A stretch of DNA of 64,000 nucleotides from an uncultured Hyphomicrobiales bacterium (GTDB lineage: Bacteria; Bacteroidota; Ignavibacteria; Kapaibacteriales; UBA2268): contig CAZDXB010000007.1 in assembly GCA_964509335.1 (NCBI GenBank), positions 44,882 through 108,881 of the forward strand, written 5' to 3'. A model generated the notes under the pieces. That model was not told the DNA's origin, did not search any database, and saw only the letters and a program-made list of their open reading frames with translations. The position numbers and the translations under genes were made by a program. Of this stretch, positions 3,874 to 43,943 are shown piece by piece. The stretch's first letter is position 1. The number at the start of each line of letters is the position of its first letter.

Positions 3874-3920
3874 GTTCCGTCCGCTCCCGCGGCGGAACGC
3901 ATACTAAGAAGCTCTGCGTC
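3874..3920 (+). repeat. REP-like palindromic element family 1 (GTTCCGNCCGCTCCNGCGGCGGAAC + GACGCTCCGCGTC), copy a
   Basis: Imperfect inverted repeat GTTCCGTCCGCTCCCGCGGCGGAAC followed by a second small palindrome. Five further copies are in this window. This copy sits 19 bp after the stop of the DUF3078 gene. Confidence 0.8.
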
Positions 3921-3945
3921 TTCTAAAAACGCTTATTCTATAATC

Positions 3946-3975
3946 CTCCTTCCCAAATTGCAATTTGGGAAGGAG
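3946..3975. repeat. Hairpin repeat family 2 (CTCCTTCCCAAATTGCAATTTGGGAAGGAG)
   Basis: Perfect 30-bp palindrome. Related copies with core CC(G/C)AAATTGNAATTT(C/G)GG occur at 17428, 21159, 34116 and 43846, and in the 6342-6466 array. Confidence 0.7.
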
Positions 3976-4031
3976 CGCAAGCCTGAACGGCAACGTCGAA
4001 CGGTCTGTTCGCCCCGTTTTACAATTGATTC

Positions 4032-4059
4032 GTAGGAGCTGAAAATCTTCAGCCCCTAC
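4032..4059. repeat. GTAG-type REP palindrome family 4 (GTAGGNGCTGAAAATCTTCAGCCCCTAC)
   Basis: Perfect stem GTAGGGGCTGAA/TTCAGCCCCTAC with a 4-nt loop. It begins with GTAG, as do REPs recognised by REP-associated tyrosine transposases. A second, 1.5-unit copy is at 53560-53603. Confidence 0.7.
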
Positions 4060-4074
4060 ATTTTTAACTCTTCA

Positions 4075-4105
4075 CTCATCCGATGACTCCGAGTCATCGG
4101 ATGAG
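4075..4105. repeat. Palindrome family 3 (CTCATCCGATGACTCnGAGTCATCGGATGAG)
   Basis: 31-bp perfect palindrome between the convergent DUF3078 and yoeB genes. An identical copy is at 56504-56534, downstream of the 1873-aa gene. Confidence 0.7.
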
Positions 4106-4121
4106 TGATGTCTATAAGCTG

Positions 4122-4168
4122 ATTCCGTCCGCTCCCGCGGCGGAACGCATACTAAGACGCTGCGCGTC
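4122..4168 (+). repeat. REP-like element family 1, copy b
   Basis: TTCCGTCCGCTCCCGCGGCGGAACGCATACTAAGACGCTGCGCGTC. It lies 200 bp from copy a and is near-identical to it. Confidence 0.8.
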
Positions 4169-4180
4169 TTCAAAAAACGC

Positions 4181-4441
4181 TTATCCGTAATGCGTCCACA
4201 TTTTAAGTATCTTAATTATCCTATCTTTTTCGTAAACTTGATAAACCAATCTATGTTGTTTATTTATCCTTCTTGATACGAATCCTTTTAATCTTCCTTT
4301 TAAGATTTCGTATTTAGGAGGATACGAGAACGGATCTTCCTTAATTATATCAAGCAATTTCTGAACTTTGCTTTTTAAATTTGATGCGGCAATTTTCTTT
4401 GAATCTTCTCGCGCTTGTTTAGTGAAATATATCTCCCACAT
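4181..4441 (-). CDS. yoeB: YoeB/Txe-family type II toxin (RelE/ParE superfamily)
   Basis: 86 aa. ...GFVSRRINKQHRLVYQVYEKDRIIKILKMWTHY matches the YoeB C-terminal catalytic region (RRI...HRLVY...RYHY-like). It is directly abutted by an upstream small antitoxin ORF. Confidence 0.75.
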   Translation of the reverse strand: MWEIYFTKQAREDSKKIAASNLKSKVQKLLDIIKEDPFSYPPKYEILKGRLKGFVSRRINKQHRLVYQVYEKDRIIKILKMWTHYG

Positions 4442-4654
4442 TTACCATTCTAAGCTTTTTGAGCAGTCGTCTAATTTTTCTTTTGAAGCTTCTATAATTG
4501 AATCGGCGACGCCGGGAATACTTTCCAGATATTCAGTGTCGCTTTCTTTTTTATGCTTTTCTTTCAAAAAAATGGCGTAGTCAAGCAAATCTTGAAGATA
4601 ATAGTATGGTATTTCGTCGATTATCTTTATCAAATTTGATTGTAAACGGTTCAT
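4442..4654 (-). CDS. Putative antitoxin partner of YoeB (small acidic protein, not obviously YefM-like)
   Basis: 70-aa ORF whose stop abuts the yoeB start (4442/4441). Acidic C-terminus. The organisation is typical of a type II TA operon. Confidence 0.5.
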   Translation of the reverse strand: MNRLQSNLIKIIDEIPYYYLQDLLDYAIFLKEKHKKESDTEYLESIPGVADSIIEASKEKLDDCSKSLEW

Positions 4655-4808
4655 ATTTTTGCTAAATTAATAATTTGAACTAACTTAATTAAGTAATATA
4701 ACGTAAAAGAGCGTTTCATATTTCATTCACCTCTTCCAATTGGGAAAAAAATCGTATATTATAAACGTTGTTTTGCAAATAAAAGACGCTCCGCGTCAAT
4801 TCTTATTC

Positions 4809-5834
4809 CTATTCGTTCTGTTTTCTGTTCCGCCTGTATTTAGAGACGTATCTTTGATGCTGTTTGTTTGTCGAGGAAAAATAATGCTCGCCGCTGCCGT
4901 CGCCTTTAGCCACGAAAAACAAATATTTATGTTCGGCTGGTTTCAAAGCCGCTTCAATCGAGGCTTCCGAAGGGCAGTTAATAGGTCCCGGCGGCAATCC
5001 GGGGTATTTATAAGTGTTGTATTGGTTGTTTGTTTTCAAATCGCTGTAAGTCAAGCGTTTCTTGCCTTTTAAAGCGTATTGAACTGTTGGGTCGGCTTGC
5101 AGAAGCATCCCGCGCTCCAAGCGATTATGATATACTCCGCTAACAATCGGACGCTCCTTATCGACGGAAGTTTCCGCCTCTATTATCGAGGCTAAGGTCA
5201 AAACTTCTAGCCGCGTCATACCTCTTCTTTCCGCTAAATCCTCGAATTTTTCGTTCCATAATTTCTCTTGCGTTCTAATCAATTTATTTAAAACGTCATC
5301 GGCTGAAGCGTCGGCGTAAAATTCGTAAGAGCTCGGGAATAAAAATCCTTCCAACGAACTGGCTTTTATTTCCCATTGTTTTCGAGTCTTTCGCGAATTA
5401 GCTAGCTCTAAAAATTCCTCTTTAGTGAAATTAAAATTCGCCGCGCTTATCTCCGCGATTCTCTCGACCGTAACGCCTTCGGGATAAGTTACCGAAACGA
5501 TATTTTGATGAGTTCCGTCAAAAATAGCTTTTAATATTTCCTCGTTTGTCGAACCGCTTTTGAATCGATACAATCCCGCCTTTACTCCTCGCGAATTGAA
5601 ACGAGCGTAAAACTTCGCCAAGAAATCGTAGAACCAGCTCGGCTTTAAAAGACCGCTTTCGTTCATAATTGAAATCGACTCCGAGACGCTCGCGTTTTGC
5701 GGTATCTCGACAACCAACTCGCCGTTTATCGACGCCGCTTCGGAAAGCTCGCTTTTACTCCAACGATAACCCGCGTATGCCGCGATTAACACGACAATCG
5801 CAAATACCAGCGCGAAAATGAAAAATTTCTTCAT
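4809..5834 (-). CDS. mltG: Endolytic murein transglycosylase MltG (YceG family)
   Basis: Single N-terminal TM segment. Hallmark YNTYKYPGLPPGPI motif and EAETSVDKERPIVSGVYHNRL, as in MltG/YceG. Confidence 0.85.
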   Translation of the reverse strand: MKKFFIFALVFAIVVLIAAYAGYRWSKSELSEAASINGELVVEIPQNASVSESISIMNESGLLKPSWFYDFLAKFYARFNSRGVKAGLYRFKSGSTNEEILKAIFDGTHQNIVSVTYPEGVTVERIAEISAANFNFTKEEFLELANSRKTRKQWEIKASSLEGFLFPSSYEFYADASADDVLNKLIRTQEKLWNEKFEDLAERRGMTRLEVLTLASIIEAETSVDKERPIVSGVYHNRLERGMLLQADPTVQYALKGKKRLTYSDLKTNNQYNTYKYPGLPPGPINCPSEASIEAALKPAEHKYLFFVAKGDGSGEHYFSSTNKQHQRYVSKYRRNRKQNE

Positions 5835-5931
5835 TTTAAAATAATCACTCTACTATTTAGTTATATTACTTTAATGAAAATACGATTATAGCGTAATAAA
5901 ATTTAATTATAAAATTTGACAGGAAAAAATT

Positions 5932-6336
5932 ATGAGTATGAAAATTTCGTTTTCGGGAAATTTAAAAATCGACGCGGAAATAAACGGCAAAGTCATTAAA
6001 ACCGACCAGCCGGCGAAAGAGGGCGGCGACGAGTCGGCTCCGGCTCCTTTCGAATATTTTTTAGCTTCTTTGGGAACCTGCGCCGGCGTTTACGTCGCGA
6101 AGTTCTGCCAAACTAGAAACATATCGTATGAAAATATCGAAATCGAACAGAAAATAGATTACGACAGAAAAAACAAACGCATCGGCAAAGTCATAATAGA
6201 CATTAAGTTGCCGGAAGACTTTCCGGAAAAATACAAAAGAGCGGTCGTAAAAGCCTCAAATATGTGCGCGGTTAAGAAATATCTGGAAAATCCGTTCGAA
6301 ATAGAAACGAAGACAACGGCGGTAGAGAGAGTATAA
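5932..6336 (+). CDS. OsmC/Ohr-family peroxiredoxin-like protein
   Basis: 134 aa. APFEYFLASLGTCAGVYVAKFC carries the first conserved Cys, and ASNMCAVKKYL the second Cys, of the OsmC fold. Confidence 0.8.
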   Translation: MSMKISFSGNLKIDAEINGKVIKTDQPAKEGGDESAPAPFEYFLASLGTCAGVYVAKFCQTRNISYENIEIEQKIDYDRKNKRIGKVIIDIKLPEDFPEKYKRAVVKASNMCAVKKYLENPFEIETKTTAVERV

Positions 6337-6341
6337 GCCTT

Positions 6342-6466
6342 ATAGACCTAATTCCCAAATAGACCTAATTCCCAAATTAGAATTTGGGAATTAGAACTGA
6401 AGTGAAATCGGAATTTGGGAATTAGAACTGAAGTGAAATCGGAATTTGGGAATTAGAACTGAAATT
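6342..6466. repeat. Tandem array: 2 x 17-bp direct repeat (AGACCTAATTCCCAAAT) then ~2.8 x 31-bp unit (GAATTTGGGAATTAGAACTGAAGTGAAATCG) containing family-2 palindrome TTCCCAAATTAGAATTTGGGAA
   Basis: Read directly. Units begin at 6380, 6411 and 6442. The array sits between the convergent osmC-like and sensor kinase genes. Confidence 0.8.
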
Positions 6467-6552
6467 TGCATTAGATATCGCGGCAACGCCGATACAGTCG
6501 AGTTCTGAGACAGCCCCAGAGCGCGAGAAAGACGCCCCGTGGTCTTAAGCTC

Positions 6553-9978: not shown

Positions 9979-10162
9979 ATCTTTTCTAATTTAACCTTTT
10001 ATTATTGCAAAGATAAAACTAACTCAATAACCAAGCAATTTTATCTCAATATATTATAAAAAAATTATTCGAATTTCGCCCATAATTTTGAATATATTTG
10101 AAAAAATAATTAAGTTGATTTTTTTATTATCTTGTTATAAAGTAAAAAGGAAGGCGATAAAT

Positions 10163-13278: not shown

Positions 13279-13327
13279 CTTTTAGAAGGAAGACTTAAGT
13301 AAGTATAACAAATAAATTACAATTTAT

Positions 13328-14410: not shown

Positions 14411-14422
14411 AAGGATTTTGCT

Positions 14423-15361: not shown

Positions 15362-15468
15362 CAAAATATGCCCGTAATACCTACTTTGATTTTTTGACAA
15401 AGATGAAAGATAATAAAGCAAAAAATCGCCGAAAATTAATACGTTTGGAGTAAGACGGAAAAGCGAAG

Positions 15469-15903
15469 TTGAATGACGCGGGCAAAATGATTGAGAAATG
15501 GTATCTTGAGTTAGAGAATAAATTCAAAGACGTTCAGAGCGATTATTTTGTAGTAATGCCAAATCATTTTCATTGTATCATATCAAAAGTAGGGGCAGAC
15601 CTATGTGTCTGCCCCAAGAATAAGCGGATAGAGAAAAATAGCGAACGCGATATTAATAAGGAATCCATAAAAAGGGTCGAACACACAGGTTCGCCCCTAC
15701 ACTCGATAATCCAATGGTTTAAAACAATGACAACCAATGAATATATTAGAGGAGTTAAAAACAACAATTGGCGTCCTTTCCCCAGCAAATTGTGGCAACG
15801 CAACTACTACGAACGTGTTATCCGAAGCGACCGCGATTTATACGAATTACGAAAATATATCAAATACAACCCATTAAAATGGACATACGACAAATACTAT
15901 TAA
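15469..15903 (+). CDS. IS200/IS605-family Y1 (HuH) transposase, REP-associated tyrosine transposase (RAYT)-like; N-terminally short or interrupted
   Basis: HuH motif VVMPNHFHCII at residues ~30-40. C-terminal LWQRNYYERVIRSDRDLYELRKYIKYNPLKW carries the catalytic-Tyr motif (WQ..YY.H/R.IR) of Y1 transposases/RAYTs. The usual ~30-aa N-terminal beta-strand region is absent. An in-frame TAA at 15451-15453 separates an upstream MKDNKAKNRRKLIRLE segment (15403..) from the rest. Confidence 0.7.
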   Translation: MNDAGKMIEKWYLELENKFKDVQSDYFVVMPNHFHCIISKVGADLCVCPKNKRIEKNSERDINKESIKRVEHTGSPLHSIIQWFKTMTTNEYIRGVKNNNWRPFPSKLWQRNYYERVIRSDRDLYELRKYIKYNPLKWTYDKYY

Positions 15904-17235: not shown

Positions 17236-17250
17236 ATATTATATCGACTC

Positions 17251-17296
17251 GTTACGTCCGCTCCGGCGACGGAAAGCATACTAAGACGCTCCGCGT
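17251..17296 (+). repeat. REP-like element family 1, copy c (degenerate)
   Basis: CGTTACGTCCGCTCCGGCGACGGAAAGCATACTAAGACGCTCCGCGT, 16 bp after the nupC stop. Confidence 0.65.
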
Positions 17297-17331
17297 TGGT
17301 AGAGCCGAGCCGCTAACCAAAACAGTAGAAC

Positions 17332-17423
17332 GGGCTTTCTAGCCTGATTATTATACCTTTTTATTGTTTTTTTTATTGCTCAAGCTAGGAAGCTTGAGCT
17401 ACTTTTGGAGATGTTATTACGCG
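17332..17423 (+). repeat. ~95-bp repeat family 5 (GGGCTTYCTAGCCTG...CTCAAGCTRGGAAG.TTG.GCTACTTT.GAGA.ATRTTATTACG), copy A; contains terminator-like hairpin GCTCAAGCTAGGAAGCTTGAGC (17378-17399)
   Basis: Aligns at ~75 % with 56238-56330. Both copies lie just downstream of a + strand gene stop. The internal perfect 22-bp hairpin is followed by ACUUUUGG. Confidence 0.65.
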
Positions 17424-17427: not shown

Positions 17428-17451
17428 TTTCCGAAATTGCAATTTCGGAAA
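17428..17451. repeat. Hairpin repeat family 2 copy (TTTCCGAAATTGCAATTTCGGAAA)
   Basis: Perfect palindrome. Confidence 0.7.
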
Positions 17452-19742: not shown

Positions 19743-20033
19743 ATGATAACATACGCAAAAGACGAATTGGTCTCCGCTTCTAAACTGGGGCGGAAACTGG
19801 GTAGCATCCTTAAAAGGCTTAGGGAAAAGAAAATAAAGAAAGTGGGCGTATTGAGAAACAACAATCTCGAAGCGGCTCTTATCCCGATAGAAGAATACGA
19901 AAGGCTGTTGGAGATAGTCGAGCATATTGAAACGGCAAAACAGATAGAGGAACGCGAAAAAACAGATTTGAAAGAAGCCGTCAGTATGGAAGATTTGGCT
20001 AAAGAAAATGGGATAGATATTGATGAGTTATGA
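19743..20033 (+). CDS. Phd/YefM-family type II antitoxin
   Basis: 96 aa. MITYAKDELVSASKLGRKLGSILKRL...VLRNNNLEAALIPIEEYERLLEIVEHIE matches the Phd/YefM N-terminal fold and its IP.EEYE..LE motif. Its end overlaps the start of a toxin remnant. Confidence 0.7.
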   Translation: MITYAKDELVSASKLGRKLGSILKRLREKKIKKVGVLRNNNLEAALIPIEEYERLLEIVEHIETAKQIEEREKTDLKEAVSMEDLAKENGIDIDEL

Positions 20034-21158: not shown

Positions 21159-21190
21159 CTCATTCCAAAATTTCAATTTCGGAATGAGGG
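21159..21190. repeat. Hairpin repeat family 2 copy (CTCATTCCAAAATTTCAATTTCGGAATGAGGGG)
   Basis: Imperfect palindrome between the convergent DMT transporter and S24 peptidase genes. Confidence 0.65.
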
Positions 21191-21231: not shown

Positions 21232-21660
21232 TTACAAATCTTTGATAACGTGCTTGACGACGCCTTGAATTTCGAAACGCCAGAACGGTTTTATTTCGAT
21301 TGGAAGGAAGTTTTTGTTCGCGGAGAAGAGGTATATAGCGCCGTCGATTACTCTAAGCGTTTTTACGGCTAACTCGCCGTTTACGGCGGCGATAACGACT
21401 TTTCCGTTTTTGGGTTCTTCGCTCGAATCGACCACTAGAATATCGCCGGCGTCTATTCCTTCCTCTATCATACTGTCGCCGACCACTCTGACCAGATAGG
21501 TGTTTTTTGGATTTGGCGTCAAATACGCTTTGAGGTCTATTTTTCTTATTCCGCTACCGTTCTTCTTAGCTAATCCGAGCGGTATAGCGGTTTTATAGAC
21601 TTCTGTCTCAAAGGCGTACTTAGCGCTCACCTTTATCGTTTTGTCTATTTTTGTTCCCAT
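21232..21660 (-). CDS. UmuD/LexA-like S24 peptidase domain protein (no DNA-binding domain); Ser/Lys dyad intact
   Basis: 142 aa. VVGDSMIEEGIDAGDILVVD holds the Ser nucleophile and NGELAVKTLRVI the Lys of the S24 dyad. No N-terminal wHTH. Leu-Gly sits where the Ala/Cys-Gly cleavage site is expected. Confidence 0.75.
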   Translation of the reverse strand: MGTKIDKTIKVSAKYAFETEVYKTAIPLGLAKKNGSGIRKIDLKAYLTPNPKNTYLVRVVGDSMIEEGIDAGDILVVDSSEEPKNGKVVIAAVNGELAVKTLRVIDGAIYLFSANKNFLPIEIKPFWRFEIQGVVKHVIKDL

Positions 21661-21663
21661 AAG

Positions 21664-22089
21664 CTAAAGCGAATGAATTACTTTTGTTACAAGCCCGAGT
21701 ATTTCGAATTTGACGTAGGGATTGATTTCCATAGGCAGAAATTGATTGTTAGTCGATTGAAGAAAAGCTTCTCCGTCGAAGACCCTATAGACTTTCAACG
21801 TCAATTCCTCGTTGCATCGCGCTACGACAATTTTGCCGTCTTTAGGTTCGAGCGACGAGTCGAATATAACCAAATCGTCGTCTCGGACGCCCAAATCCGC
21901 CATAGCGTCGCCGCAGACTTTTGCGAAAAAAGTCGCCGCCGGATGTTTGACGAGAAATTCGTTAATGTCAACCTCTTCGTCCTTCTCGCTGCCGACCGAA
22001 ACAGGCGTTCCGGCGGAAACGGACATAGAATAAAGAGGCGCTTTCTCGCCCGCTCCCGGCTCTAAAGCGAAAACTTCTTTTAGTTCCAT
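21664..22089 (-). CDS. UmuD-like S24-fold paralog with nucleophile Ser replaced by Ala (GDAM) but a canonical Ala-Gly cleavage site
   Basis: 141 aa. VCGDAMADLGVRDDDLVIFD aligns with GDSM of the neighbour but is S->A. The Lys is retained (EELTLKVYRV). VSAGTP places Ala-Gly exactly 35 residues upstream, as in UmuD/LexA. Confidence 0.7.
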   Translation of the reverse strand: MELKEVFALEPGAGEKAPLYSMSVSAGTPVSVGSEKDEEVDINEFLVKHPAATFFAKVCGDAMADLGVRDDDLVIFDSSLEPKDGKIVVARCNEELTLKVYRVFDGEAFLQSTNNQFLPMEINPYVKFEILGLVTKVIHSL

Positions 22090-22198: not shown

Positions 22199-22696
22199 AT
22201 GACGAAGACAAAAAAAGTAATTATATATACGGACGGCTCAAGTTTAGGCAACCCGGGACCGGGTGGTTGGGCGGCGGTTCTAATTTACGGACCGAAGCGC
22301 AAGGAGATTAGCGGCGGTTTTCGCTCGACCACCAATAACAGAATGGAGCTTTACGCGGCTATTCGCGGCTTGGAAGCGATTAAGCGAAGCGACAAATGGA
22401 CGATTGAATTGCACACCGATTCGCGCTACTTAGCCGACGCCGTCAACAAAGGCTGGCTGGAAAGCTGGCGAAGACGCGGCTGGAAAAGAAAAAGCGGCGA
22501 AATCCTGAATTTGGACTTATGGAAAAGATTTTGGAAAGCTTACGAGGCGAGAAAAATGGAAATCGTTTGGGAGCGGGGGCATTCCGGCGTAAAAGAAAAC
22601 GAACGCTGCGACGAGTTAGCCAAGAAAGCCGCCCAAGAGCCAAATTTGCCTCGAGATGAAGAGTATGAGAGGTATTATGGGAATAAAAAGGGATGA
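22199..22696 (+). CDS. rnhA: Ribonuclease HI
   Basis: IYTDGSSLGNPGPGGWAAVL, ...NNRMEL..., HTDSRYL and GHSG..ENERCDELAKKAA are canonical RNase H catalytic DEDD-context motifs. Confidence 0.9.
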   Translation: MTKTKKVIIYTDGSSLGNPGPGGWAAVLIYGPKRKEISGGFRSTTNNRMELYAAIRGLEAIKRSDKWTIELHTDSRYLADAVNKGWLESWRRRGWKRKSGEILNLDLWKRFWKAYEARKMEIVWERGHSGVKENERCDELAKKAAQEPNLPRDEEYERYYGNKKG

Positions 22697-22705: not shown

Positions 22706-23635
22706 TTAGTAGGAGTTTTGGGCGACTTCTTCTGCAAATAACGATTTTTGAGCAATTGTATCGTCTTCTCCGTGATTGTGATCTTTAATATTTTTGTCCA
22801 ATTCAAAATTACATACTAAAGCTTCTACTATTCTATTTCTATTTTCAATTTTACCGCCCGAATGATAGAAATGGTCTCTTGTGATTATGTTGAAATTGTC
22901 CCAATATTTATTTATCATTTCGTTGTTACGGAAGTCGTTGTGATGCCAAGTAGAAAGGATAAAATAAGCGTCCGTCTCTTTTAATTGGTTGAACAATAAT
23001 TCTTCTTCCTTTTCGGACCAGCCGTTGTAATAATCTACATAACGTCCGAGATACGGAGGATCGCAATATATAATATCGCCCTTTCTAGCCTTAGGTATAA
23101 CTTTATGAAATTGCTCGTTCAGAAATATCCATTCCTTTCCAATTCTTCTCTTTGCTTTATAGGCTTGATTTACAATTTTAGTAATGTAAGATTTCGAAAA
23201 TCTATTTGGTTTTTTACAAAACGGTATATTCCATTCCCCTTTTTTATTGAATCTCATCATTCCGTTAAATGCGGCTCTAGAAAGAAAAATGAAATCTAAC
23301 GACGACCCTTCTTCGTTAAATCTATTTTTAACGAATCTGTAATGAACGTAGCCGTCTTCTTTTGCGTTTCTTAAATTCTCGCCTTCTTTTTTTAAGTATA
23401 TCCTCACGGTTTCAGGAGTTATGTCGTTGTTTTGTAGCTCTTTGTAGAACTTTATGATATGAGGATTTATATCGTTTAGTATTGCTTTCTCAAAATTCAA
23501 ATTTAGAGCGACAACTCCGGTTCCCAAAAAAGGTTCTACCCAACGTCCGCTTGAACTTGGAGCAATCGATTTTATCCACGGGACTAATTTTGTTTTAATA
23601 CCCTGGCTTTTTATAGGCGGCACGCAAACTTTCAT
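22706..23635 (-). CDS. Dam-family (alpha-class) N6-adenine DNA methyltransferase, M.EcoRV-like
   Basis: N-terminal motif PPIKSQGIKTKLVPWI (AdoMet/Dam K.QG.K motif) and catalytic DPPY (IIYCDPPYLGR). Overlaps the start of the adjacent EcoRV-like endonuclease by 4 nt. Confidence 0.85.
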   Translation of the reverse strand: MKVCVPPIKSQGIKTKLVPWIKSIAPSSSGRWVEPFLGTGVVALNLNFEKAILNDINPHIIKFYKELQNNDITPETVRIYLKKEGENLRNAKEDGYVHYRFVKNRFNEEGSSLDFIFLSRAAFNGMMRFNKKGEWNIPFCKKPNRFSKSYITKIVNQAYKAKRRIGKEWIFLNEQFHKVIPKARKGDIIYCDPPYLGRYVDYYNGWSEKEEELLFNQLKETDAYFILSTWHHNDFRNNEMINKYWDNFNIITRDHFYHSGGKIENRNRIVEALVCNFELDKNIKDHNHGEDDTIAQKSLFAEEVAQNSY

Positions 23636-24555
23636 AACGTTTTCTTTCTTTTTTTAGCTCCTTTTAATATAACTTTTTTGAATAAATCTTTTCTTCCTTT
23701 GAACTCTAAAAAATCCCAAATATTAGTAATTTTTACCGTCTTGTCTTTTTTAACCATAGTGGCTTCTCCATAGTTCATCCAGTATTCGTCAAACCATTCC
23801 TCGCCTAAATTACTGAATACGCCATTTTCATTTTTCAAATCTTTAATGTCCTTAATAGAACCAATATTTGCAGTATTGCCCGACCCTCTACTATCGCTTG
23901 CTATTTTCCATTTTTCCGCTACGAAAAAGTCAAAATCTTTAATTATGGAAGTTAAGGAAACCAATTTATCGACAGTTCTAATTCGCTTTTTATTAAAGGA
24001 GTTTCTAAACTCTTCTTTGCATTCGTTCAGCTCTTTAACGCGATAAATTTCAGTTTCTCCAAGTTTATCGGAATAATCAATTTTCGAATAAATAATACCT
24101 AAACAATAATGCCCAAGATATTGATTATATGGAAATTGTATGTTCTTATCTTTATTCCTTTCTTTGAAATAACCGCCGTGGCTCCCTAACGTGAAGCCTG
24201 CGGTCTTGTCGTTTCGTCTGTAAGTAGTTTTTAGATCTAATGCAAACTTAACGTCGTCGTTGTTCTTATAAATGAACGTTAAATCAGGATAGTAATTCTG
24301 TTTTTCCGCTAGTATAATTTTGTAATCATTTTCTTCCGCAAATTTTAAAATCAACGGGAAAATGTGGGTTTCAAGGATTTTCGATACAATTTTTGTATCC
24401 GGCGATATCGTATATATATTCTTATAAATATCTATAAATCCTTTAATCGTCCAGCTACCGTCGTCCGAAGAAACATAATCCTTGAGTTCTAATACAAATT
24501 TTTTTAGATTGTTTGAAAATTCTCTTTTATACTTTTTCTTTTCCAATAATTTCAT
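23632..24555 (-). CDS. Type II restriction endonuclease, EcoRV family (predicted GATATC specificity)
   Basis: From recall of R.EcoRV, collinear matches include: DTKIVSKILE (EcoRV DTKVLSTIFE); AEKQNYYPDLTF (EPKQQNHYPDFTL, Asp74 region); ALDLKTTY (AIDIKTTY, Asp90/Lys92); FTLGSHGGYF; QFPYNQYLGHYCLGIIYS (VYPFDQYIAHWIIGYVYT); KWKIASDSRGSGNTANIGSI (KWVIAGDLAGSGNTTNIGSI); WFDEYWMNY (FLDYWRNY). Confidence 0.8.
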   Translation of the reverse strand: MKLLEKKKYKREFSNNLKKFVLELKDYVSSDDGSWTIKGFIDIYKNIYTISPDTKIVSKILETHIFPLILKFAEENDYKIILAEKQNYYPDLTFIYKNNDDVKFALDLKTTYRRNDKTAGFTLGSHGGYFKERNKDKNIQFPYNQYLGHYCLGIIYSKIDYSDKLGETEIYRVKELNECKEEFRNSFNKKRIRTVDKLVSLTSIIKDFDFFVAEKWKIASDSRGSGNTANIGSIKDIKDLKNENGVFSNLGEEWFDEYWMNYGEATMVKKDKTVKITNIWDFLEFKGRKDLFKKVILKGAKKRKKTL

Positions 24556-31085: not shown

Positions 31086-31096
31086 AGTTAACTAAA

Positions 31097-34035: not shown

Positions 34036-34037
34036 GC

Positions 34038-34067
34038 GAGCGTTATCGGAACGCTCTCTTACTTTTT
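34038..34067 (+). terminator. Rho-independent terminator after TPR-HK gene
   Basis: GAGCGTT-atcgg-AACGCTC hairpin followed by TCTTACTTTTT, 3 bp after the stop. Confidence 0.6.
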
Positions 34068-34115
34068 CCCGCATCCGACGAGCTAAATCTCGTCGCAATT
34101 GAACGACTTTTTATA

Positions 34116-34147
34116 TCATTCCGAAATTGGAATTTCGGAATGAGGGA
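34116..34147. repeat. Hairpin repeat family 2 copy (TCATTCCGAAATTGGAATTTCGGAATGAGGG)
   Basis: Perfect palindrome. Confidence 0.7.
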
Positions 34148-34195
34148 TAGAGATAGAAGACTTGTTCTGCCGTTCTATCTACGGCTAATCAGAGT

Positions 34196-34869
34196 TTAAG
34201 GTGACAGGCGCTAACGATAGGCGGATAACCGACACGCTTTAGCGGTCGGATATCCTTTTTCGGCGATATCGAGCGATGGCAAATAGTTAAAGAGACTGTC
34301 TCGAAAGCAATAAATTCATACACGGGGGGCAAGCCCCGTGTGCTTCCAAAGTAAATCAGCGTAAAGCGATGGAATATAAACTTATCAGTCAATATTGAAA
34401 GGACGCATCGGGGCTAGCCCCGATGTAATATTTAAGTTTTTTAGGCAGTCGCTTCAGTTGTCGGCTTTCGTCAAGCGGCTTCTTAGCGTTAGCGGAAAGC
34501 TAAAGCTTTCCGTTTCCTTGGATTGCGAAGACGGGGGCGTCTTCGCTACTCTGTTTTGAAAAAATAAAAATAATATTTGGATTGTATAAATTTTGTTTTT
34601 ATATTTGTATTGGAATGTTATAAGTTCATATATATATATGATTTACAAAAACAAATAGAGGAGGCGTAAATTTGCCGGACATAATAGTTATAGAATGCCA
34701 AAGATTAAAACTGCCAAAATAAAGGACCGGCGAGAGTAAGCCGCGTCGCCGGTCCAATTATTGCGTCAACGCGCGTTCCCGAGTTTAAGATGTTATATTC
34801 GCGTTATAACTGCGGCTCGGGAACGCCGCCTATAATAACAATTACAAATTTAATAAAAAGGAAAGAGTT
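34196..34869 (+). promoter_or_regulatory. Long conserved non-coding leader, copy 1: ~100-bp conserved block (34196-34300), ~260-bp hairpin-rich unique segment, then ~310-bp block (34560-34869) with AT-rich promoter-like region, SD-preceded 16-codon uORF (34672-34722) and two GC-rich stem-loops (34724-34755; 34773-34826)
   Basis: 34560-34886 is ~95 % identical to 38566-38891, and 34196-34300 is ~85 % identical to 38336-38440. Hairpins GGACCGGCGA-N12-TCGCCGGTCC and GCGTTCCCGAG-N32-CTCGGGAACGC are identical in both copies. The uORF AGAGGAGG-7nt-TTG is MPDIIVIECQRLKLPK. Confidence 0.6.
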
Positions 34870-35457
34870 ATGAAAAAGATAATTTTGTTAATAATAGGTT
34901 TAATGTTTTTATCGTTTGTAATTTTGAAATCGCAACCAGCTTGCGAGCCTTGTTCATCTCAAACTACTTGGGCAAATGCACCTGTTAGTGTTTTACACGT
35001 TGTAATATCTGGTTCGGGATGCGAATTTGACGTTGAATACCAAACAATATTCTGCCTGACAGATGGAACTTGTAATTTTAGAATATTAAAACTCTACAAT
35101 ATTTTGGAGGCTTGCGACGGTTATGGTCCATTGGAATTACTAGAACAAGCGGCGCTGCAAATTATAAAAAACGATGGTATGTTCAAACAATGCTGGCCAT
35201 CTGGCTCTGGAGATTGTGTAGAACAAACTAGAGAGTGGTCCGCGGCTTGCTGGAAGTGGAAAGGAAACGTTGGTCCAGGACCGGGAACTACAGCTACGCT
35301 TAAGCCTTGCGAAACAGAGTCCTGTTGCGAATCCTATTATATGATTTGTAATGAAGGAGGAGCAATTATTGTTTATAAAACATATACAGAGGCAACTCAT
35401 CCTTGCGTGAATCCCGGTCCTGAGTGCTTTATAAGATGTGATTCTGGAGAAAAATAA
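34870..35457 (+). CDS. Cysteine-rich secreted protein (195 aa, ~19 Cys), uncharacterised family; paralog of 38875-39450
   Basis: Signal peptide MKKIILLIIGLMFLSFVILKS. C.PC near the mature N-terminus and the motif GCEFDVEYQTIFC match C.C and HCVFEAYYC in the paralog. The first 17 nt of the CDS are identical to the paralog, as part of the duplicated leader. Confidence 0.6.
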   Translation: MKKIILLIIGLMFLSFVILKSQPACEPCSSQTTWANAPVSVLHVVISGSGCEFDVEYQTIFCLTDGTCNFRILKLYNILEACDGYGPLELLEQAALQIIKNDGMFKQCWPSGSGDCVEQTREWSAACWKWKGNVGPGPGTTATLKPCETESCCESYYMICNEGGAIIVYKTYTEATHPCVNPGPECFIRCDSGEK

Positions 35458-35467
35458 GGAGTAAAAT

Positions 35468-35992: not shown

Positions 35993-36062
35993 AGAAGGAT
36001 AAAAGGGGAGGGAATAAATTCTCTCCCCTCGAATTTTCAATAAAAATCGGAGGCTTAATAAA

Positions 36063-38219: not shown

Positions 38220-38239
38220 CTTCGAATATCATTAAACTC

Positions 38240-38313
38240 TTCCGTCCGCTCCAGCGGCGGAACGCATATTGAGACGCTCCGCGTCGTTTTTTCTTTGCCG
38301 CGCAGAGCGCGGG
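38240..38313 (+). repeat. REP-like element family 1, extended copy d (three hairpins: GTTCCG..CGGAAC, GACGCTCCGCGTC+T6, CCGCGCAGAGCGCGG)
   Basis: Begins 21 bp after the 36063-38219 stop. The long form is shared with copy e. Confidence 0.8.
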
Positions 38314-38335
38314 TTATTTTGGAATGAGGGGGAAG

Positions 38336-38874
38336 AGGGCGCTAACGATAGGCGGTAAACCGACACGCCTTAGCGGTCGGCAATCGTATCGCGGCAATAT
38401 TGAGCGCTGGCAAATAGTTAAAGCTATCGGTTGCCGAAAGATTACTTTGAAATATCGCATAGTTTTTGTGCGTATAAACCAATATAATATAAAATATTTA
38501 TAGAATATCTATGTTCACATGTGAACATTTTCAGCCCGCTATGTTCATATGTGAACATAGCTTAAATAATAAAAATAATATTTGGATTGTATAAATATTG
38601 TTTTTATATTTGTATCGGAATGTTATAAGTCCATATATATATATGATTTACAAAAATAAATAGAGGAGGCGTAAATTTGCCGAACATAATAGTTTTAGAA
38701 GGGCGAAGATTAAAACTGCCTAAATAAAGGACCGGCGAGAGTAAGCCGCGTCGCCGGTCCAATTATTGCGTCAAAGCGCGTTCCCGAGTTAAAGATGTTA
38801 TATTCGCGTTATAACTGCGGCTCGGGAACGCCTCCTATAATAACAATTGCAAATTTAATAAAAAGGAAAGAGTT
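38336..38874 (+). promoter_or_regulatory. Conserved non-coding leader, copy 2 (100-bp block 38336-38440; unique AT-rich segment with two perfect palindromes at 38511-38528 and 38539-38560; 310-bp block 38566-38874 with uORF 38677-38727 MPNIIVLEGRRLKLPK and the same two stem-loops)
   Basis: See copy 1. Palindromes ATGTTCACATGTGAACAT and CTATGTTCATATGTGAACATAG, read directly. Confidence 0.6.
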
Positions 38875-39450
38875 ATGAAAAAGATAATTTTAATATCGAT
38901 AACAATAGTCTTATTAGGATTAACTTTTAGCGCTAATAAGCTTAACGCACAGTGCGATTGCCCTCAAGACATACCGCCAACGAATATACCTTGGACTGTG
39001 GAAGGTCCCCATTATATCTTCATATACGACGACGAAGGTGACCATTGCGTTTTTGAGGCATATTATTGCTGGCGTAAAATTCTAGATTATTATCCGTCGC
39101 CGGAAATTCAAGTTGTTGTTTGTAAATATAGTCCTACGGAAGATTGCAACGAGAATTTTAATCTTTCGGTTTGGGAAATATATAAAAAATTGGGAATAAA
39201 AATAATTGAATTAAATCCAGATAATTTAGATTGGCCCGCTCCACCTTGTCCATATGGTTATCCATATTACTCAGTAGTAACTTTCGGTTGCTATGATGTA
39301 TATGACGAAACCCCGTGCGGCGGTTTAGTGTATTGTAAATACTTATTTGAAGTTTGTATGAGTGCGGGTCAAAGGATAACTAAGCCATTAGGAGCGACGA
39401 CGGTTGGAGACGAATGTCCGGTCGGGTGCGATAACAAATGCGGCGATTAA
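38875..39450 (+). CDS. Cysteine-rich secreted protein (191 aa, ~18 Cys), divergent paralog of 34870-35457
   Basis: Signal peptide MKKIILISITIVLLGLTFSANKLNA. Mature QCDCPQD...; HCVFEAYYC; C-terminal ECPVGCDNKCGD. Confidence 0.6.
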   Translation: MKKIILISITIVLLGLTFSANKLNAQCDCPQDIPPTNIPWTVEGPHYIFIYDDEGDHCVFEAYYCWRKILDYYPSPEIQVVVCKYSPTEDCNENFNLSVWEIYKKLGIKIIELNPDNLDWPAPPCPYGYPYYSVVTFGCYDVYDETPCGGLVYCKYLFEVCMSAGQRITKPLGATTVGDECPVGCDNKCGD

Positions 39451-39476
39451 TGATTGTAATAAAAAAGGAACTTGCT

Positions 39477-41954
39477 ATGTCGATTACAAAATATATTTTA
39501 ACAACGATAACAATAACTATAATCTTAGTTAATCCGTTGAAAGCCGAAAAGAAAATTGTTTGGCAAAATACAATATCGCGAATTTTGGATTGTCAAGTTA
39601 TCGATTCGCAGAATTACGTGATAGTCGGCGACGACGGCAAGATAATCTCGACGAGCGACGGCGGTTTTACTTGGCGATGGTTAGAATGCGGTTTGAGAAA
39701 TATATTTTACGGCGTAGATTTCCTCGACAAGAATACGGGCGTCGTTGTCGGCGACGGCGGCGCCTTCACCGCCACTACCGACGGCGGCGAGACTTGGCGT
39801 ACAGAAACTATAGATACGACCGCGTTTTTTTCGGTCGAAATGAAGAGCAAAAACGCGATATTCGCAAGCGGAATGAATACTTGTATTTACAAATCGAGCG
39901 ATTTCGGCGAGACTTGGAAAAAGGTTTTTAGCGGCGATAACGCCGTATTAGAAAACTATTTTTTCTTTAAAGACAGCATAAAAACAATAAAAGCCTATTC
40001 AAACAATAGCGATATTCATTTTGTAAACGACTCTATCGGTTTTGCCGCGGGCGTCGGACCTTTCGTTTTAAAAACCGAGGACGGCGGGGAGAGCTGGCGC
40101 AAAGTTCTGCAAAAAGGAGACAGCGCTCTATTTACGGATATCGACTTTTACGACGATAAACGCGGCGTAGCGGCGGGAGGCGATTTCGTATATAACGATT
40201 CGTTAAACTATGGGTATTTAAAAGCGAAGGCGTATTATACATTGGACGGAGGAGAAAACTGGATAGAAATGGATGCGCCGGGAGCGGGGCATTATATAGG
40301 CGCGAAGATGTTCGATAGCTCTTATATATATTTACTCGGCGGAACTCATTGGTCTCATATAACTAAAGATTTCGGTAACAGTTGGCGAAAAATTAAGTTT
40401 ATCGATTACAAATACTTCAAAAACAATCTGGACACTGATAATTATAAAGATACGACCGCGGCTTGGGGATCTGATTATACGCCGACAGCTATGTCCTCCG
40501 ATAACGAAGGGGTTATATTGTCTATCGACAAACAAGGAGTGATAATGAAATCGACCAATTTCGGCATAAATTATCAAACTTTAAAGAAGTTTGAAATGTA
40601 TGAATTTATTGGACATTATTTTAGACGCATTCACGGTTTTGCATCGCTTTCGGAAAACAAAGCGTTATTTTTTGGCGAGGAAAGCAAAGTTTATAGAACT
40701 TCCGACGGGGGAACAAGCTGGGACATTATTTTCCCTCGTTATGAAATAAAAAACTGGGATGATAAAGAATTTTGGAGTAGTATTTCATCGTCCAACGCTT
40801 CTTTTTATACTAGTTATTTACCCGATAGCGCGAACGGTTTCATTGCAGGCAAACTCGACGGTTGGAAGCCGTCAAATACGATATTTACTTCCGACGGCGG
40901 CGAAACTTGGGATATCGTAAATAATTTGAAATCGAAGAGCCTTAGTTTTATATCAAGAGATACAGGATTCGCAATAGGTTACGATTCATTACTTTTAAAA
41001 ACTGAAAATTTTGGGCTTAGTTGGGATACTCTGAGAATTTTTCATAGATCGGGCGATTATAATGAACGGCAACTTAACAATCGACCTCTACAAATAGTTT
41101 TTCCCGACTCAAGCGCCGGATATCTAATCATTAATTCAGCTTATATAAAAACAAACGATACGATTACTTATCCTACGGGTTATAAAGGGATCTCTAAGCT
41201 TTATAGAACTACAGACCGCTGGCAAACTTTCGATTCAATTTTTTGCGAGGAAACTCGCTGGCCCTTCGATAAAATTCACTTTATGGATAAAAATACGGCG
41301 TATATTTTTAGCGGCGACCATAAAACAATCTATAAAACGACCGACGGTTGCAAGACTTGGGATACGCGTATGCTTCCGGGAAATTACCATTTCGTAAACG
41401 ACGTTCATTTTATAGACGAAAATTTCGGGGTCGCCGTGGGGCGGCAGGACACAATATTTACTACGCGAGACGGCGGAAAATCTTGGGAAATAAAAGTTCT
41501 GCCTTTTAATAGAAATTATTTTGGCGATAAAAGGGGGGAGGATTTATATGATTTTATAGAAATAACCGAAGCAAAAAACGGTGATTTGTTTATTGTTGGC
41601 AAGGGCAGGGTTGTTAGAGGGTTAATAATAAACGACACGACGACGGTAGAGGGCCAAACGGAAGGCGGCAGGTATTGTCAGTTTTATTACATCACGATTA
41701 TCCCAAATCCTGTTAAGGGAACAGCGAAAATAAATTTATATGGATTGACACAGGCTAAGGGGCATAAATTGAGCTTAAAAATATACGATATAAACGGAAA
41801 TTTCGTTAAAGATATATCTAAGAAGGCGAACGCCAACAGCGATGGCAAAACCGCCGAGTTTGAAGTTAATTTGCACGGTTTGCCGAGCGGCATATATTTT
41901 ATTCAATTGGAGAGCAACAGCCGGACTAGATCCCGGAAGTTTATAAAGTATTAA
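39477..41954 (+). CDS. Large BNR/Asp-box repeat (Ycf48/sortilin-like) double beta-propeller protein with T9SS C-terminal sorting domain
   Basis: Track start 39438; ATG 39477 gives signal peptide MSITKYILTTITITIILVNPLKA. At least 12 Asp-box-like repeats (SDGGFTWRW, TDGGETWRT, SDFGETWKK, EDGGESWRK, LDGGENWIE, SDGGTSWDI, SDGGETWDI, TDGCKTWDT, RDGGKSWEI ...). C-terminal IIPNPVKGTAKINLYGL...FIKY CTD. Confidence 0.7.
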   Translation: MSITKYILTTITITIILVNPLKAEKKIVWQNTISRILDCQVIDSQNYVIVGDDGKIISTSDGGFTWRWLECGLRNIFYGVDFLDKNTGVVVGDGGAFTATTDGGETWRTETIDTTAFFSVEMKSKNAIFASGMNTCIYKSSDFGETWKKVFSGDNAVLENYFFFKDSIKTIKAYSNNSDIHFVNDSIGFAAGVGPFVLKTEDGGESWRKVLQKGDSALFTDIDFYDDKRGVAAGGDFVYNDSLNYGYLKAKAYYTLDGGENWIEMDAPGAGHYIGAKMFDSSYIYLLGGTHWSHITKDFGNSWRKIKFIDYKYFKNNLDTDNYKDTTAAWGSDYTPTAMSSDNEGVILSIDKQGVIMKSTNFGINYQTLKKFEMYEFIGHYFRRIHGFASLSENKALFFGEESKVYRTSDGGTSWDIIFPRYEIKNWDDKEFWSSISSSNASFYTSYLPDSANGFIAGKLDGWKPSNTIFTSDGGETWDIVNNLKSKSLSFISRDTGFAIGYDSLLLKTENFGLSWDTLRIFHRSGDYNERQLNNRPLQIVFPDSSAGYLIINSAYIKTNDTITYPTGYKGISKLYRTTDRWQTFDSIFCEETRWPFDKIHFMDKNTAYIFSGDHKTIYKTTDGCKTWDTRMLPGNYHFVNDVHFIDENFGVAVGRQDTIFTTRDGGKSWEIKVLPFNRNYFGDKRGEDLYDFIEITEAKNGDLFIVGKGRVVRGLIINDTTTVEGQTEGGRYCQFYYITIIPNPVKGTAKINLYGLTQAKGHKLSLKIYDINGNFVKDISKKANANSDGKTAEFEVNLHGLPSGIYFIQLESNSRTRSRKFIKY

Positions 41955-41974
41955 GCGGAAACTAACTTTCAACT

Positions 41975-42051
41975 CGTTCCGCCCGCTCCAGCGGCGGAAC
42001 GCATACCCAGACGCTCCGCGTCGTTTTTTCTTTGCCGCGCAGAGCGCGGGG
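41975..42051 (+). repeat. REP-like element family 1, extended copy e
   Basis: GTTCCGCCCGCTCCAGCGGCGGAACGCATACCCAGACGCTCCGCGTCGTTTTTTCTTTGCCGCGCAGAGCGCGGG, 21 bp after the 41954 stop. Confidence 0.8.
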
Positions 42052-42153
42052 AATTTATGAGGCGAAACACTGATTCAGCTTACCCTCCTTCCAAAACTCC
42101 GATTTTGGAAGGTTATTTATATCAATTTGTCGCGGTGTCGTTTAATGACGCGC

Positions 42154-43740
42154 CTAAGGTAGATTCGGCTCCGCCATTATTACTTGCTCCCTCGCTATTA
42201 CGACGCTGCCGGGATTCGCTCCTTTCGGTTTGCGAACGTATTTTTTGTATGTGTAGGCGACCGGAGCGTATTTGGCGTTTCTCGCTTTTGAGTAATACAA
42301 AGCTATAGAGGCGGCTTTTTGTATTATGTGTTTCGACGGTTTTTGCTTTTTTCCCAGTCTAAGAACGGCGTGCGAGCCGCCCGCGCCGCGAGCGTGAAAC
42401 CATAAGTCGTTTGGCTTGGCGAATTTCATCGTCAGTTCGTCGTTTTCGGCGGCGTTCTTGCCTACGTATAGAACGAAGCCTTCGCCTAAATCGAATGTTC
42501 TGAATTTCGCGTCTGCGCTATCTTCTTTCATTCCGCTTCCCAATATTTTATTCGCTTCTTTCTGTATCTTTTCAATTTCTTTGACGGTTCGCGCTTTTTC
42601 TAATTGATTGAGAATTTTTTGAACCGCGCTAAGCTCGTCTTTTGTTTTCGGTATTCTTTTCTTTCTGATTTTTAACTCTTCCCTCGTCGAGCGGGCTTTG
42701 TCGAAATATTTTTGCGCGTTCTCCAGCAAGCTTCTTTCTTTTTCGAGCGGTATTTCGATAGTTTCGCCGCTAAAATCTTCGAGATTTATCGAATCGCCCG
42801 CTTTGATTTTTGGATTTGGTTGCGCCATTAACACTTCGGCGTATTTTTGGTATTTTGCCGCTCTACTTTCCGCTTTCGTTTCGTTTTGCAATTCCGTTAG
42901 CGTTTTCGCGAGCTTATCTTTCCTTCTAATTAATCTCTTTTCGAGGCTTCCGCTAATCGAATCGAACTTTTCATTTTTCAAATAGCCGACGACGCGTTCG
43001 CGAATGGCAGCGCTTATTGAATCGAATATTTTTTCCGGCTCTTCCCTTTCGCTTAGCGGCGTTAAAGACAAAACCGAAGAACGCCCGCCGTATAAATAGA
43101 ATTTTTCCGAAGACTTTAGCTCGGCGATAAATTTCTCCGCTTCGCTTTTCAAGCGCTCTAGCGAAAATTCTCCGAGCTTCGCGTTTTTATCGATTCCCGC
43201 GCGACTTAATATCTCGGCGGCGTAGCGTTTGCCGAGCTTATAGTTGGATTTAGAAAGAACTTTGTAAATTGTCGTTTCGGGCTTGAAATCATCTATAGAC
43301 TTAAGCGAGCCTTTCGGCGCGGATAATTTCGAGCCGACGTATTTATCGGAAGATTTGAACGCGTCTGTAACGGTATCCTTCGAGTCGGTCAAGAAAACGT
43401 TGCTTTTAGGACCGCCGAAGACGAAAAAATATAAGTTATACTCGCCAAAGTAGAGTTTAATAATTCTATCGTCGGAAGAAATCTCGACGGATTCAACGGT
43501 TTCGCCGACGATTGGCGCGAATAAATCGACGACGTTCTTTCTGGCTTTGGCGAAGTCGTCCCTGAGAAACATGGACGCTATTTGCGGCTTGCCGTAATAT
43601 TGAACGTAAAATTCCTCGTCGCCAAAAAGCTCCAGAACGAGCGAATTCTTCTCTTGGCTAAAGCAATCCGACAGAGTCGCCCCCTTAAGAACTTGAAATT
43701 CCTCGACGACCTTTAGCAATGTATAGTAATTTCTAATCAT
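42154..43740 (-). CDS. rqcH: NFACT-family protein (FbpA/RqcH-like ribosome quality-control factor) with C-terminal NFACT-R/DUF814 domain
   Basis: 528 aa. The C-terminal WFHARGAGGSHAVLRLGKKQKPSKHIIQKAASIALYYSKARNAKYAPVAYTYKKYVRKPKGANPGSV is typical of DUF814/NFACT-R. A coiled-coil middle region is present. Confidence 0.7.
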   Translation of the reverse strand: MIRNYYTLLKVVEEFQVLKGATLSDCFSQEKNSLVLELFGDEEFYVQYYGKPQIASMFLRDDFAKARKNVVDLFAPIVGETVESVEISSDDRIIKLYFGEYNLYFFVFGGPKSNVFLTDSKDTVTDAFKSSDKYVGSKLSAPKGSLKSIDDFKPETTIYKVLSKSNYKLGKRYAAEILSRAGIDKNAKLGEFSLERLKSEAEKFIAELKSSEKFYLYGGRSSVLSLTPLSEREEPEKIFDSISAAIRERVVGYLKNEKFDSISGSLEKRLIRRKDKLAKTLTELQNETKAESRAAKYQKYAEVLMAQPNPKIKAGDSINLEDFSGETIEIPLEKERSLLENAQKYFDKARSTREELKIRKKRIPKTKDELSAVQKILNQLEKARTVKEIEKIQKEANKILGSGMKEDSADAKFRTFDLGEGFVLYVGKNAAENDELTMKFAKPNDLWFHARGAGGSHAVLRLGKKQKPSKHIIQKAASIALYYSKARNAKYAPVAYTYKKYVRKPKGANPGSVVIAREQVIMAEPNLP

Positions 43741-43845
43741 TCAAATCTTCAGATTGTATTTGTCGCAAAAATAAAAAAAGGAGAGGAGTATTTAACAATT
43801 CCCCTCTCATAAAACTCTGTTGAGAGAACGTTTAATGAACTCCTA

Positions 43846-43866
43846 CTGAAATTGAAATTTCGGAAG
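43846..43866. repeat. Hairpin repeat family 2 partial copy (CTGAAATTGAAATTTCGGAAG)
   Basis: Read directly. Confidence 0.5.
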
Positions 43867-43893
43867 AGACAAACAAAATCGCTACGATTAAAC

Positions 43894-43943
43894 GACGCGG
43901 AGCGTCTCAATATGCGTTCCGCCGCGGGAGCGGGCGGAACGAG
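43894..43943 (-). repeat. REP-like element family 1, copy f (reverse orientation)
   Basis: Reverse complement reads GTTCCGCCCGCTCCCGCGGCGGAACGCATATTGAGACGCTCCGCGTC. It lies ~80 bp downstream of the minus-strand metalloprotease stop, in matching orientation. Confidence 0.8.

Follow-up and report, generated by a model that had tools for sequence, protein, structure and literature searches.

How does a short, hairpin-rich sequence come to stand directly behind the stop codons of several genes in one bacterial genome? This question is raised by a 64-kb stretch of contig CAZDXB010000007.1 (positions 44,882 to 108,881, hereafter called the window) from an uncultured member of the Bacteroidota. An initial annotation of the window described six copies of a "REP-like" three-hairpin element, here called family 1, and suggested that the copies serve as terminators and stabilizers of mRNA 3′ ends. 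Our analysis shows that family 1 is a dispersed extragenic palindromic repeat, held at an unusually strict distance from stop codons. We consider it probable, at roughly 60%, that family 1 is a lineage-specific repeat of the repetitive extragenic palindromic (REP) type, residing in the 3′ untranslated regions of an organism whose nearest relatives are Kapabacteria and Ignavibacteria.

Copies and anatomy of family 1

A stem-1 pattern with 0-3 mismatches allowed matched exactly the six sites of the initial annotation in the window, while the expectation from 100 shuffles was 0. A covariance model of the 59-nt core scored these six copies at 73-84 bits, and the next best match in the window remained below 10 bits; the window therefore contains no diverged extra copies or relics of family 1. 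The model was built with the stem-2 register off by one column and still separated the six copies cleanly; the pairing counts given below use the correct register. Copies are named here by the first nucleotide of stem 1 in the direction of the element (Table 1).

The family-1 unit consists of an oriented core of ~59 nt, followed by exchangeable tails. The core opens with a leader of 7-8 nt (TCAACTC) and continues with stem 1, a GC-rich 10-bp hairpin of 25 nt that has a TCCN loop and a conserved bulge of one base, T or C. An unpaired, conserved linker of ~9-10 nt (GCATAYTRA) then leads to stem 2, a 5-bp hairpin (GACGC-TCC-GCGTC), and the two stems have the apical motif CGC-TCC(N)-GCG in common. 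Stem 1, the linker and stem 2 are conserved across the copies, whereas the terminator-like tail varies, with four types of sequence following stem 2 among the six copies. The type-A tail, TTC(T/A)AAAAACGCTTAT, is found in copies 3874 and 4122, which are 94% identical over 62 nt and lie 248 nt apart in direct orientation; all family-1 copies are singletons. The long form noticed by the initial annotation, in which T6 and a third hairpin (tail sequence GTTTTTTCTTTG-CCGCGCAGAGCGCGG) precede a T-rich stretch, is confined to two copies, 38239 and 41976. Copies 17251 and 43940 have one private tail each. In addition, an isolated stem-2 module lies 11 nt past the yceG stop codon (4809), where the minus strand reads GACGCGGAGCGTC and then TTTTATTT, a hairpin with a T-tract.

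The hairpins drawn by the initial annotation fold well in most copies, but not in all. Stem 1 reaches -13 to -16 kcal/mol in five of the six, but only -7.9 kcal/mol in copy 17251, where three positions are unpaired and uncompensated, marking a decayed copy; in copy 3874 it is stem 2 that is disrupted (-0.8 kcal/mol). Across the copies, 93% of the stem cells pair. All of the changes in the stems are disruptive or wobble, and no compensatory change was found among the six copies.

Is the repeat real, or was it produced by the assembly? The sequence joining the DUF3078 stop codon to the element recurs in three independent Logan assemblies from other runs (L008-L010), and family 1 is therefore no assembly artefact. 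All three end 44 nt past this stop codon, within the repeat, a break of the kind expected for a sequence present in multiple copies. Family 1 fragments the short-read assemblies of the source organism, and short-read contigs of SRR7048219, SRR7048220 and SRR7048228 (L003, L008, L009 and L010) stop inside family-1 elements, one such end lying 27 nt past the nupC stop codon.

Position relative to genes

Where do the copies lie with respect to genes? On a gene map rebuilt with Pfam and NCBIfam, five copies run parallel to an upstream gene, with stem 1 beginning 18, 15, 19, 21 and 80 nt past the stop codon, which agrees with the 16-80 bp given by the initial annotation. Measured to the start of the core, these distances are 10 nt (DUF3078), 7 nt (nupC), 11 and 13 nt (two genes for BNR proteins of the type IX secretion system, T9SS) and 72 nt (a 1006-aa T9SS cargo gene). 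The sixth copy, 4122, had been left without a gene end; the end of its core is in fact 8 nt from the stop codon of yoeB, a gene that had been overlooked. The core thereby lies 7-13 nt from a stop codon in five of the six copies (P ~5e-6 under uniform intergenic placement), which bears out the "REP-like" designation. Under the same placement model, the arrangement of four of the six copies, parallel and with the 5′ end proximal to the stop codon, has P ~1e-5. The gene-parallel orientation that had been claimed holds for five of the six copies at the nearest gene end; orientation alone is not significant, however, and copy 4122 is antiparallel to yoeB.

Every copy sits in a tandem or convergent spacer, behind the final gene of what looks like a transcription unit; divergent spacers contain none. 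Five palindromic elements fill the convergent spacer 3856-4180, and a GTAG...CTAC palindrome (43978-44005) stands between the stop codon of the T9SS cargo gene and copy 43940. Upstream of each of the five parallel copies stands a gene for a membrane or secreted protein: DUF3078, nupC or one of three T9SS cargo proteins. One of these genes, at 44021-47041, had been labelled a metalloprotease; Pfam gives only FlgD_ig and a T9SS sorting domain and did not reproduce the label.

Two further observations concern this setting. Orientation relative to the replication strand is inseparable from gene orientation at the six copies, and the GC-skew pattern appears local. The yoeB gene belongs to a toxin-antitoxin pair (4181-4654, minus strand) in an apparently empty 950-nt spacer, and a weak Phd/YefM-like open reading frame (ORF) occurs at 19743-20033.

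Table 1. Family-1 copies and associated features of the window (positions in the 64-kb window).
Feature	Position	Strand	Structure or score	Neighbouring gene
Copy 1 (3874), short form, type-A tail (TTCTAAAAACGCTTAT)	3866..3937	+	83.4 bits; stem 1 3874-3898; stem 2 3908-3920, disrupted	DUF3078 gene, stop 3855; core begins 10 nt later
Copy 2 (4122), short form, type-A tail	4114..4185	+	77.5 bits; core 4114-4172; stem 1 4122-4146	yoeB, stop (TTA, 4181-4183 on the plus strand) 8 nt from core end; antiparallel; type-A tail overlaps the stop codon
Copy 3 (17251), decayed, unrelated tail of its own	17243..17301	+	73.2 bits; stem 1 17251-17275	nupC, stop 17235; core begins 7 nt later
Copy 4 (38239), long form	38231..38329	+	78.8 bits; stem 1 38239-38263; stem 2 38273-38285, then GTTTTTTCTTT; stem 3 38298-38312, then GTTATTTT	BNR/T9SS protein gene, stop 38219; element begins 11 nt later
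Copy 5 (41976), long form	41968..42062	+	83.5 bits; stem 1 41976-42000; stem 2 42010-42022 plus T6; stem 3 42035-42049	Second BNR/T9SS protein gene, stop 41954; element begins 13 nt later
Copy 6 (43940)	43870..43948	-	82.7 bits; core 43890-43948; stem 1 43916-43940; own tail with AATCG-TAG-CGATT hairpin, then TTGTTTG	1006-aa T9SS cargo gene, stop 44021; element begins 72 nt later
Isolated stem-2 module (GACGCTCCGCGTC)	4785..4797	-	13/13 identical; terminator-like on the minus strand	
yoeB toxin gene	4181-4441	-	TIGR02116, E=1.5e-27	
70-aa ORF upstream of yoeB	4442-4654	-		
Degraded RAYT-like Y1/HUH transposase gene	15403..15903	+	NF047646; ORF 15469-15903	Just upstream of nupC
GTAG...CTAC palindromes, perfect or near-perfect	4032-4059, 43978-44005, 53560-53587 (partial tandem copy to 53609)		11-12-bp stems, AAAT/ATTT core	Gene 3′ ends
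AT-cored palindromes TTCCNAAATT-N3-AATTTNGGAA (at least seven)	3946-3975, 6365-6394, 17428-17451, 21160-21190, 34116-34143, 42087-42112, 43844-43865			
Perfect palindrome, 33-37 nt, ACTCATCCGATGACTC-N-GAGTCATCGGATGAGT	4072-4108, 56503-56535		-28 kcal/mol	

Spread and lineage restriction

How did the copies reach their places? Over ~95 nt, the two long copies share 93% identity, and the similarity has a sharp boundary on the 5′ side. The products of the genes upstream of them are 24% identical, and the 3′ coding DNA of these genes cannot be aligned. The unit has therefore been copied, and not inherited by segmental duplication of the genes. Spread by transposition is plausible on this sequence comparison. 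The only feature common to the 5′ flanks of the copies is their AT-richness.

Outside the window, family 1 was sought with a 23-nt core pattern that matches all six copies. Among 185,579 species (one genome each) and 241 million metagenome records, this pattern found one unrelated chance sequence only, in a Clostridia metagenome-assembled genome (MAG) and its corresponding metagenome contig; in viral contigs it found no match. A blastn search with the long form against plasmids and phages gave no match, and neither did an artificial query made of all translated open frames of the element, which was directed at spurious ORFs over copies elsewhere. LysRS places the source organism near Bacteroidota, Kapabacteria and Ignavibacteria MAGs, with a best identity of 78%. 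In ~65 kb from three relatives (LysRS identity 72-78%), the covariance model detected no copy, where ~6 would be expected at the density of the window. The window contains ~2.8 perfect hairpins per 10 kb with stems of at least 9 bp, and the three relatives contain few long perfect hairpins: stems of 9 bp are missing altogether from one of them (L011), and lowering the threshold to 8 bp gives counts of 2, 7 and 4.

A RAYT-like relic and other palindromes

Does the window contain an enzyme for such repeats? The ORF just upstream of nupC matches the NCBIfam model REP_Tyr_transpos (NF047646) of REP-associated tyrosine transposases (RAYT) with E=7.9e-16 and 58 bits, below the cut-off of 80; full-length homologs of this gene likewise fall below the equivalog cut-off. 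Its match to TnpA_REP (4ER8) is weak, with the HUH and Tyr motifs aligned, and both motifs are retained (PNHFH and YIKYNP, respectively). Compared with the full-length homologs, the gene has a 26-codon deletion of the conserved first strand (YDYS..YFVTICT) and an in-frame TAA at 15451-15453, and it is therefore a relic. A GTAG-tagged perfect hairpin lies inside its coding sequence (15588-15615, the VGADLCVCP codons), and a similar hairpin occupies the equivalent place in the homologs L018 and L019.

At least three more families of palindromes occur alongside family 1 in gene 3′ flanks (Table 1). The GTAG...CTAC palindromes are similar to hairpins found beside RAYT-like genes in other genomes (169-198 in L018 and 778-798 in L019) and are probably the classical REPs of the source genome. 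The AT-cored palindromes have stems of up to 13 bp and stand 29-91 nt past stop codons, mostly without a T-tract; the one at 6365-6394 is followed by three 31-nt tandem repeats (6374-6466). The second copy of the 33-37-nt palindrome lies 28 nt past the stop codon of a 1873-aa gene. This ORF (56563-62184, minus strand) has no Pfam domain at E<=1e-5, and T9SS components in its region are PorV (47338-48447) and a C25 PorU-like protein (48509-52543).

Further features of the window are the following. Upstream of two paralogous genes of unknown function (34870-35457 and 38875-39450), a 300-nt stretch is 95% identical (34559-34858 and 38564-38863) and an 86-nt stretch is 86% identical (34207-34292 and 38338-38423); these duplicated stretches contain conserved hairpins and may be a shared promoter or leader, or a non-coding RNA. 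Two tandem genes for S24 (LexA/UmuD-like) peptidases (21232-22089) are followed by an RNase H gene (22199-22696), past which lie genes for an EcoRV-like restriction endonuclease and a D12 adenine methyltransferase (22706-24555).

Interpretation and alternatives

We propose the following course for a REP-type repeat of this kind. Family-1 copies would be duplicated to unrelated genes by an enzyme acting on single-stranded-DNA hairpins, or by gene conversion. They would survive only in the short non-coding stretch past stop codons, where they do no harm, and where transcription would include them in the 3′ untranslated region. Stem 1, being strong, could then block 3′-to-5′ exonucleases, and the long variant alone is built like an intrinsic terminator.

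Several points weigh against this proposal. The aligned copies revealed neither a target-site duplication nor a terminal inverted repeat, nor an empty site; in the search for an empty site, the paralogous spacers 34036-34869 and 38220-38874 were aligned and gave no clean insertion boundary. The window contains no mobilizing enzyme linked to family 1. Family 1 does not flank the RAYT-like relic, and at two homologous loci GTAG-type hairpins stand beside the gene, with nothing resembling family 1; the RAYT-like enzyme therefore probably pairs with the GTAG palindromes rather than with family 1. The sample is only six copies in 64 kb, and the high similarity between them could also reflect purifying selection on a function. 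Finally, the 7-13 nt spacing is tighter than neutral tolerance alone predicts.

How far could the copies act as terminators? The role assigned to them by the initial annotation fits the long form, in which a hairpin is followed by a T-tract, but not the other four copies, which have no such tract. Within family 1, a scan found this combination only at 38273-38285, 38298-38312 and 42010-42022. The cores at 3874, 4122 and 17251 were not flagged, the tail past stem 2 at 43940 contains just three T, and copy 17251 has separate terminator-like hairpins downstream (17331-17346 and 17378-17399). Since the combination of hairpin and T-tract is confined to the long form, the terminator reading holds for that variant only, and only two of the six copies appear to qualify as classical (Rho-independent) terminators. 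Stabilization of mRNA 3′ ends by the family-1 hairpins is plausible from the predicted folds.

A broader proposal is that all copies belong to a dedicated, modular family of terminators and 3′-end stabilizers, selected at gene ends. All six copies adjoin gene 3′ ends, at the ends of transcription units and not at operon-internal junctions; moreover, the long form has two hairpins with a T-rich stretch after each, the isolated stem 2 carries its T-tract just past the yceG stop codon, and stem 1 is stable at -13 to -16 kcal/mol. We nevertheless regard this proposal as unlikely: no U-tract follows any core hairpin in four of the six copies, copy 3874 has a broken stem 2 and copy 17251 a stem 1 decayed without compensation, and the gene nearest to copy 4122 runs antiparallel to it. 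Other candidate terminating hairpins stand near the copies (3946-3975, 17331-17399, 42087-42112 and 43978-44005), and the conserved part is stem 1, the linker and stem 2, not the terminator-like tail.

Family 1 could also be the recognition hairpin of another single-stranded-DNA enzyme, either a diverged Ssn-like nuclease or a transposase other than the GTAG-specific RAYT, whose action or retention would be tied to the first ~10 nt past stop codons. We consider this a rather doubtful possibility. If true, this uncultured Bacteroidota lineage would have a second, independent hairpin-repeat system beside the GTAG REPs, and the upstream gene might experience an effect coupled to termination.

In another reading, which we judge improbable, stem 1 is a diverged CGTC-tagged or NTS-like repeat, the single-stranded-DNA target of a small GIY-YIG nuclease of the Ssn family encoded elsewhere in the genome. 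The shape is similar to the Neisseria NTS (CGTCATTCCCGCGMAVGCGGGAATCYRG), with an unpaired (A/G)CTC tag, a stem (G/A)TTCC...GGAA(C) and a short GCA tail, and NTS/CGTC-type repeats are the targets of Ssn nucleases (PMC11893778). CGTC repeats, which have CCTC tag variants and lack a dedicated transposase, have also been described from Chlorobi and Bacteroidetes (PMC3733652). However, the published pattern for Ssn-related motifs (SRM), HGTCWYN(0-2)YYVSBRHN(0-5)WNVSBRGN(0-2)RNCYNB, has no exact match in the window and misses all six copies even with 2 substitutions, the stem has 10 bp and a bulge as compared to 8-9 bp in the CGTC families, and neither the large nor the small ORFs of the window gave a match to GIY-YIG, whereas the single-domain GIY-YIG (cd10448) genes of such systems are usually flanked by the motif.

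Could the hairpin instead meet the terminating ribosome and regulate the upstream gene through translation termination? Stem 1 begins 15-21 nt past the stop codon in four copies, a very narrow range, and there is a precedent in E. coli, where REPs lying under 16 nt away from a stop codon down-regulate translation (as summarized in PMC12306157). Three of these four starts (18, 19 and 21 nt) are past the 15-nt limit and the fourth (15 nt) is barely inside it, and the two remaining copies are 80 nt and 266 nt away, which makes such a regulator a slim prospect.

Finally, a conserved RNA structure in the 3′ untranslated regions of envelope- or secreted-protein mRNAs, acting in cis regulation or bound by a protein, would suit the membrane and secreted products of the five parallel upstream genes and the conserved unpaired linker, but is very improbable given that envelope proteins are common throughout the window, so that the association with envelope genes is weak, that the stems show no covariation, that family 1 is absent from ~65 kb of relatives and from the public collections scanned, and that Rfam gives no match even at permissive thresholds (only a tRNA passes the gathering threshold in the window, and the best permissive matches on the element have E>=0.5).

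The reading of family 1 as a lineage-specific REP-type repeat leaves the current understanding of REPs unchanged, and adds to them a family from a poorly sampled, uncultured Bacteroidota lineage. What distinguishes this family is its unusually strict position 7-13 nt past stop codons, its composite build, and its occurrence beside GTAG palindromes and a decayed RAYT-like gene. It thereby offers a small natural test case for the spread of non-GTAG palindromic repeats, for their possible recruitment as 3′-end structures, and for the breakage of short-read assemblies of the source organism at gene ends.

Comparison with known systems

Modular intergenic repeats with several hairpins are exemplified by the pneumococcal BOX and the enterobacterial ERIC/IRU elements, which are probably co-transcribed with their neighbours. 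Family 1 is likewise modular, but it is shorter, has no sequence similarity to these elements, and is strictly proximal to stop codons. Three other classes were considered and rejected. A miniature inverted-repeat transposable element (MITE) would have terminal inverted repeats and target-site duplications, and the aligned copies showed neither shared terminal inverted repeats nor flanking direct repeats. In an integron attC site, the order is R''(RYYYAAC)...R'(GTTRRRY), the reverse of the 5'-GTT...AAC-3' stem seen here; the neighbours are large housekeeping and T9SS genes rather than genes of cassette size, and the window contains no integrase. Domain V of group II introns was rejected on anatomy or scores.

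With Rho-independent terminators, the long form shares GC hairpins and T-tracts just past the stop codon, whereas the conserved part of family 1 has no U-tract and four of the six copies do not qualify as such terminators. With the CGTC REPs and dRS3/NTS repeats, family 1 has in common a 4-nt tag that is unpaired and has TC as its last two letters, a stem running from (A/G)TTCC at its opening to GGAA(T/C) at its close, a loop of 4 nt, a short 3′ tail, the location in gene 3′ flanks and the Bacteroidetes/Chlorobi group. The tag itself is different, being ACTC or GCTC and not CGTC, and the stem is longer and bulged.

The closest comparison is with the REP and bacterial interspersed mosaic element (BIME) systems, for example the GTAG REPs of E. 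coli and Pseudomonas with their RAYT/TnpA_REP enzymes. Classical REPs are imperfect palindromes of 20-40 nt and number tens to hundreds per genome; stem 1 has 25 nt, and the 64-kb window contains six copies. Unlike these, family 1 has no GTAG tag (its 5′ foot is ACTC, GCTC or GCTG, and ATGC on the other strand) and does not form inverted pairs (REPIN/BIME). Its unit is composite (the two hairpins differ from each other, the linker is conserved and the tail varies), and the RAYT-like relic of the window has no family-1 flanks. The likenesses begin with stem 1, a short, GC-rich, imperfect palindrome of 10 bp with a mid-stem interruption, the geometry described for E. coli REPs, whose 10 base pairs are interrupted mid-stem (PMC3479197). 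Described REPs lie less than 20 bp from the 3′ ends of ORFs, mostly between tandem or convergent genes (PMC3733652). Family 1 is similarly dispersed, extragenic and lineage-specific, stands mostly within ~20 nt of ORF 3′ ends in tandem and convergent spacers, clusters with other palindromes in the convergent spacer 3856-4180, and shares its genome with a RAYT-like gene.

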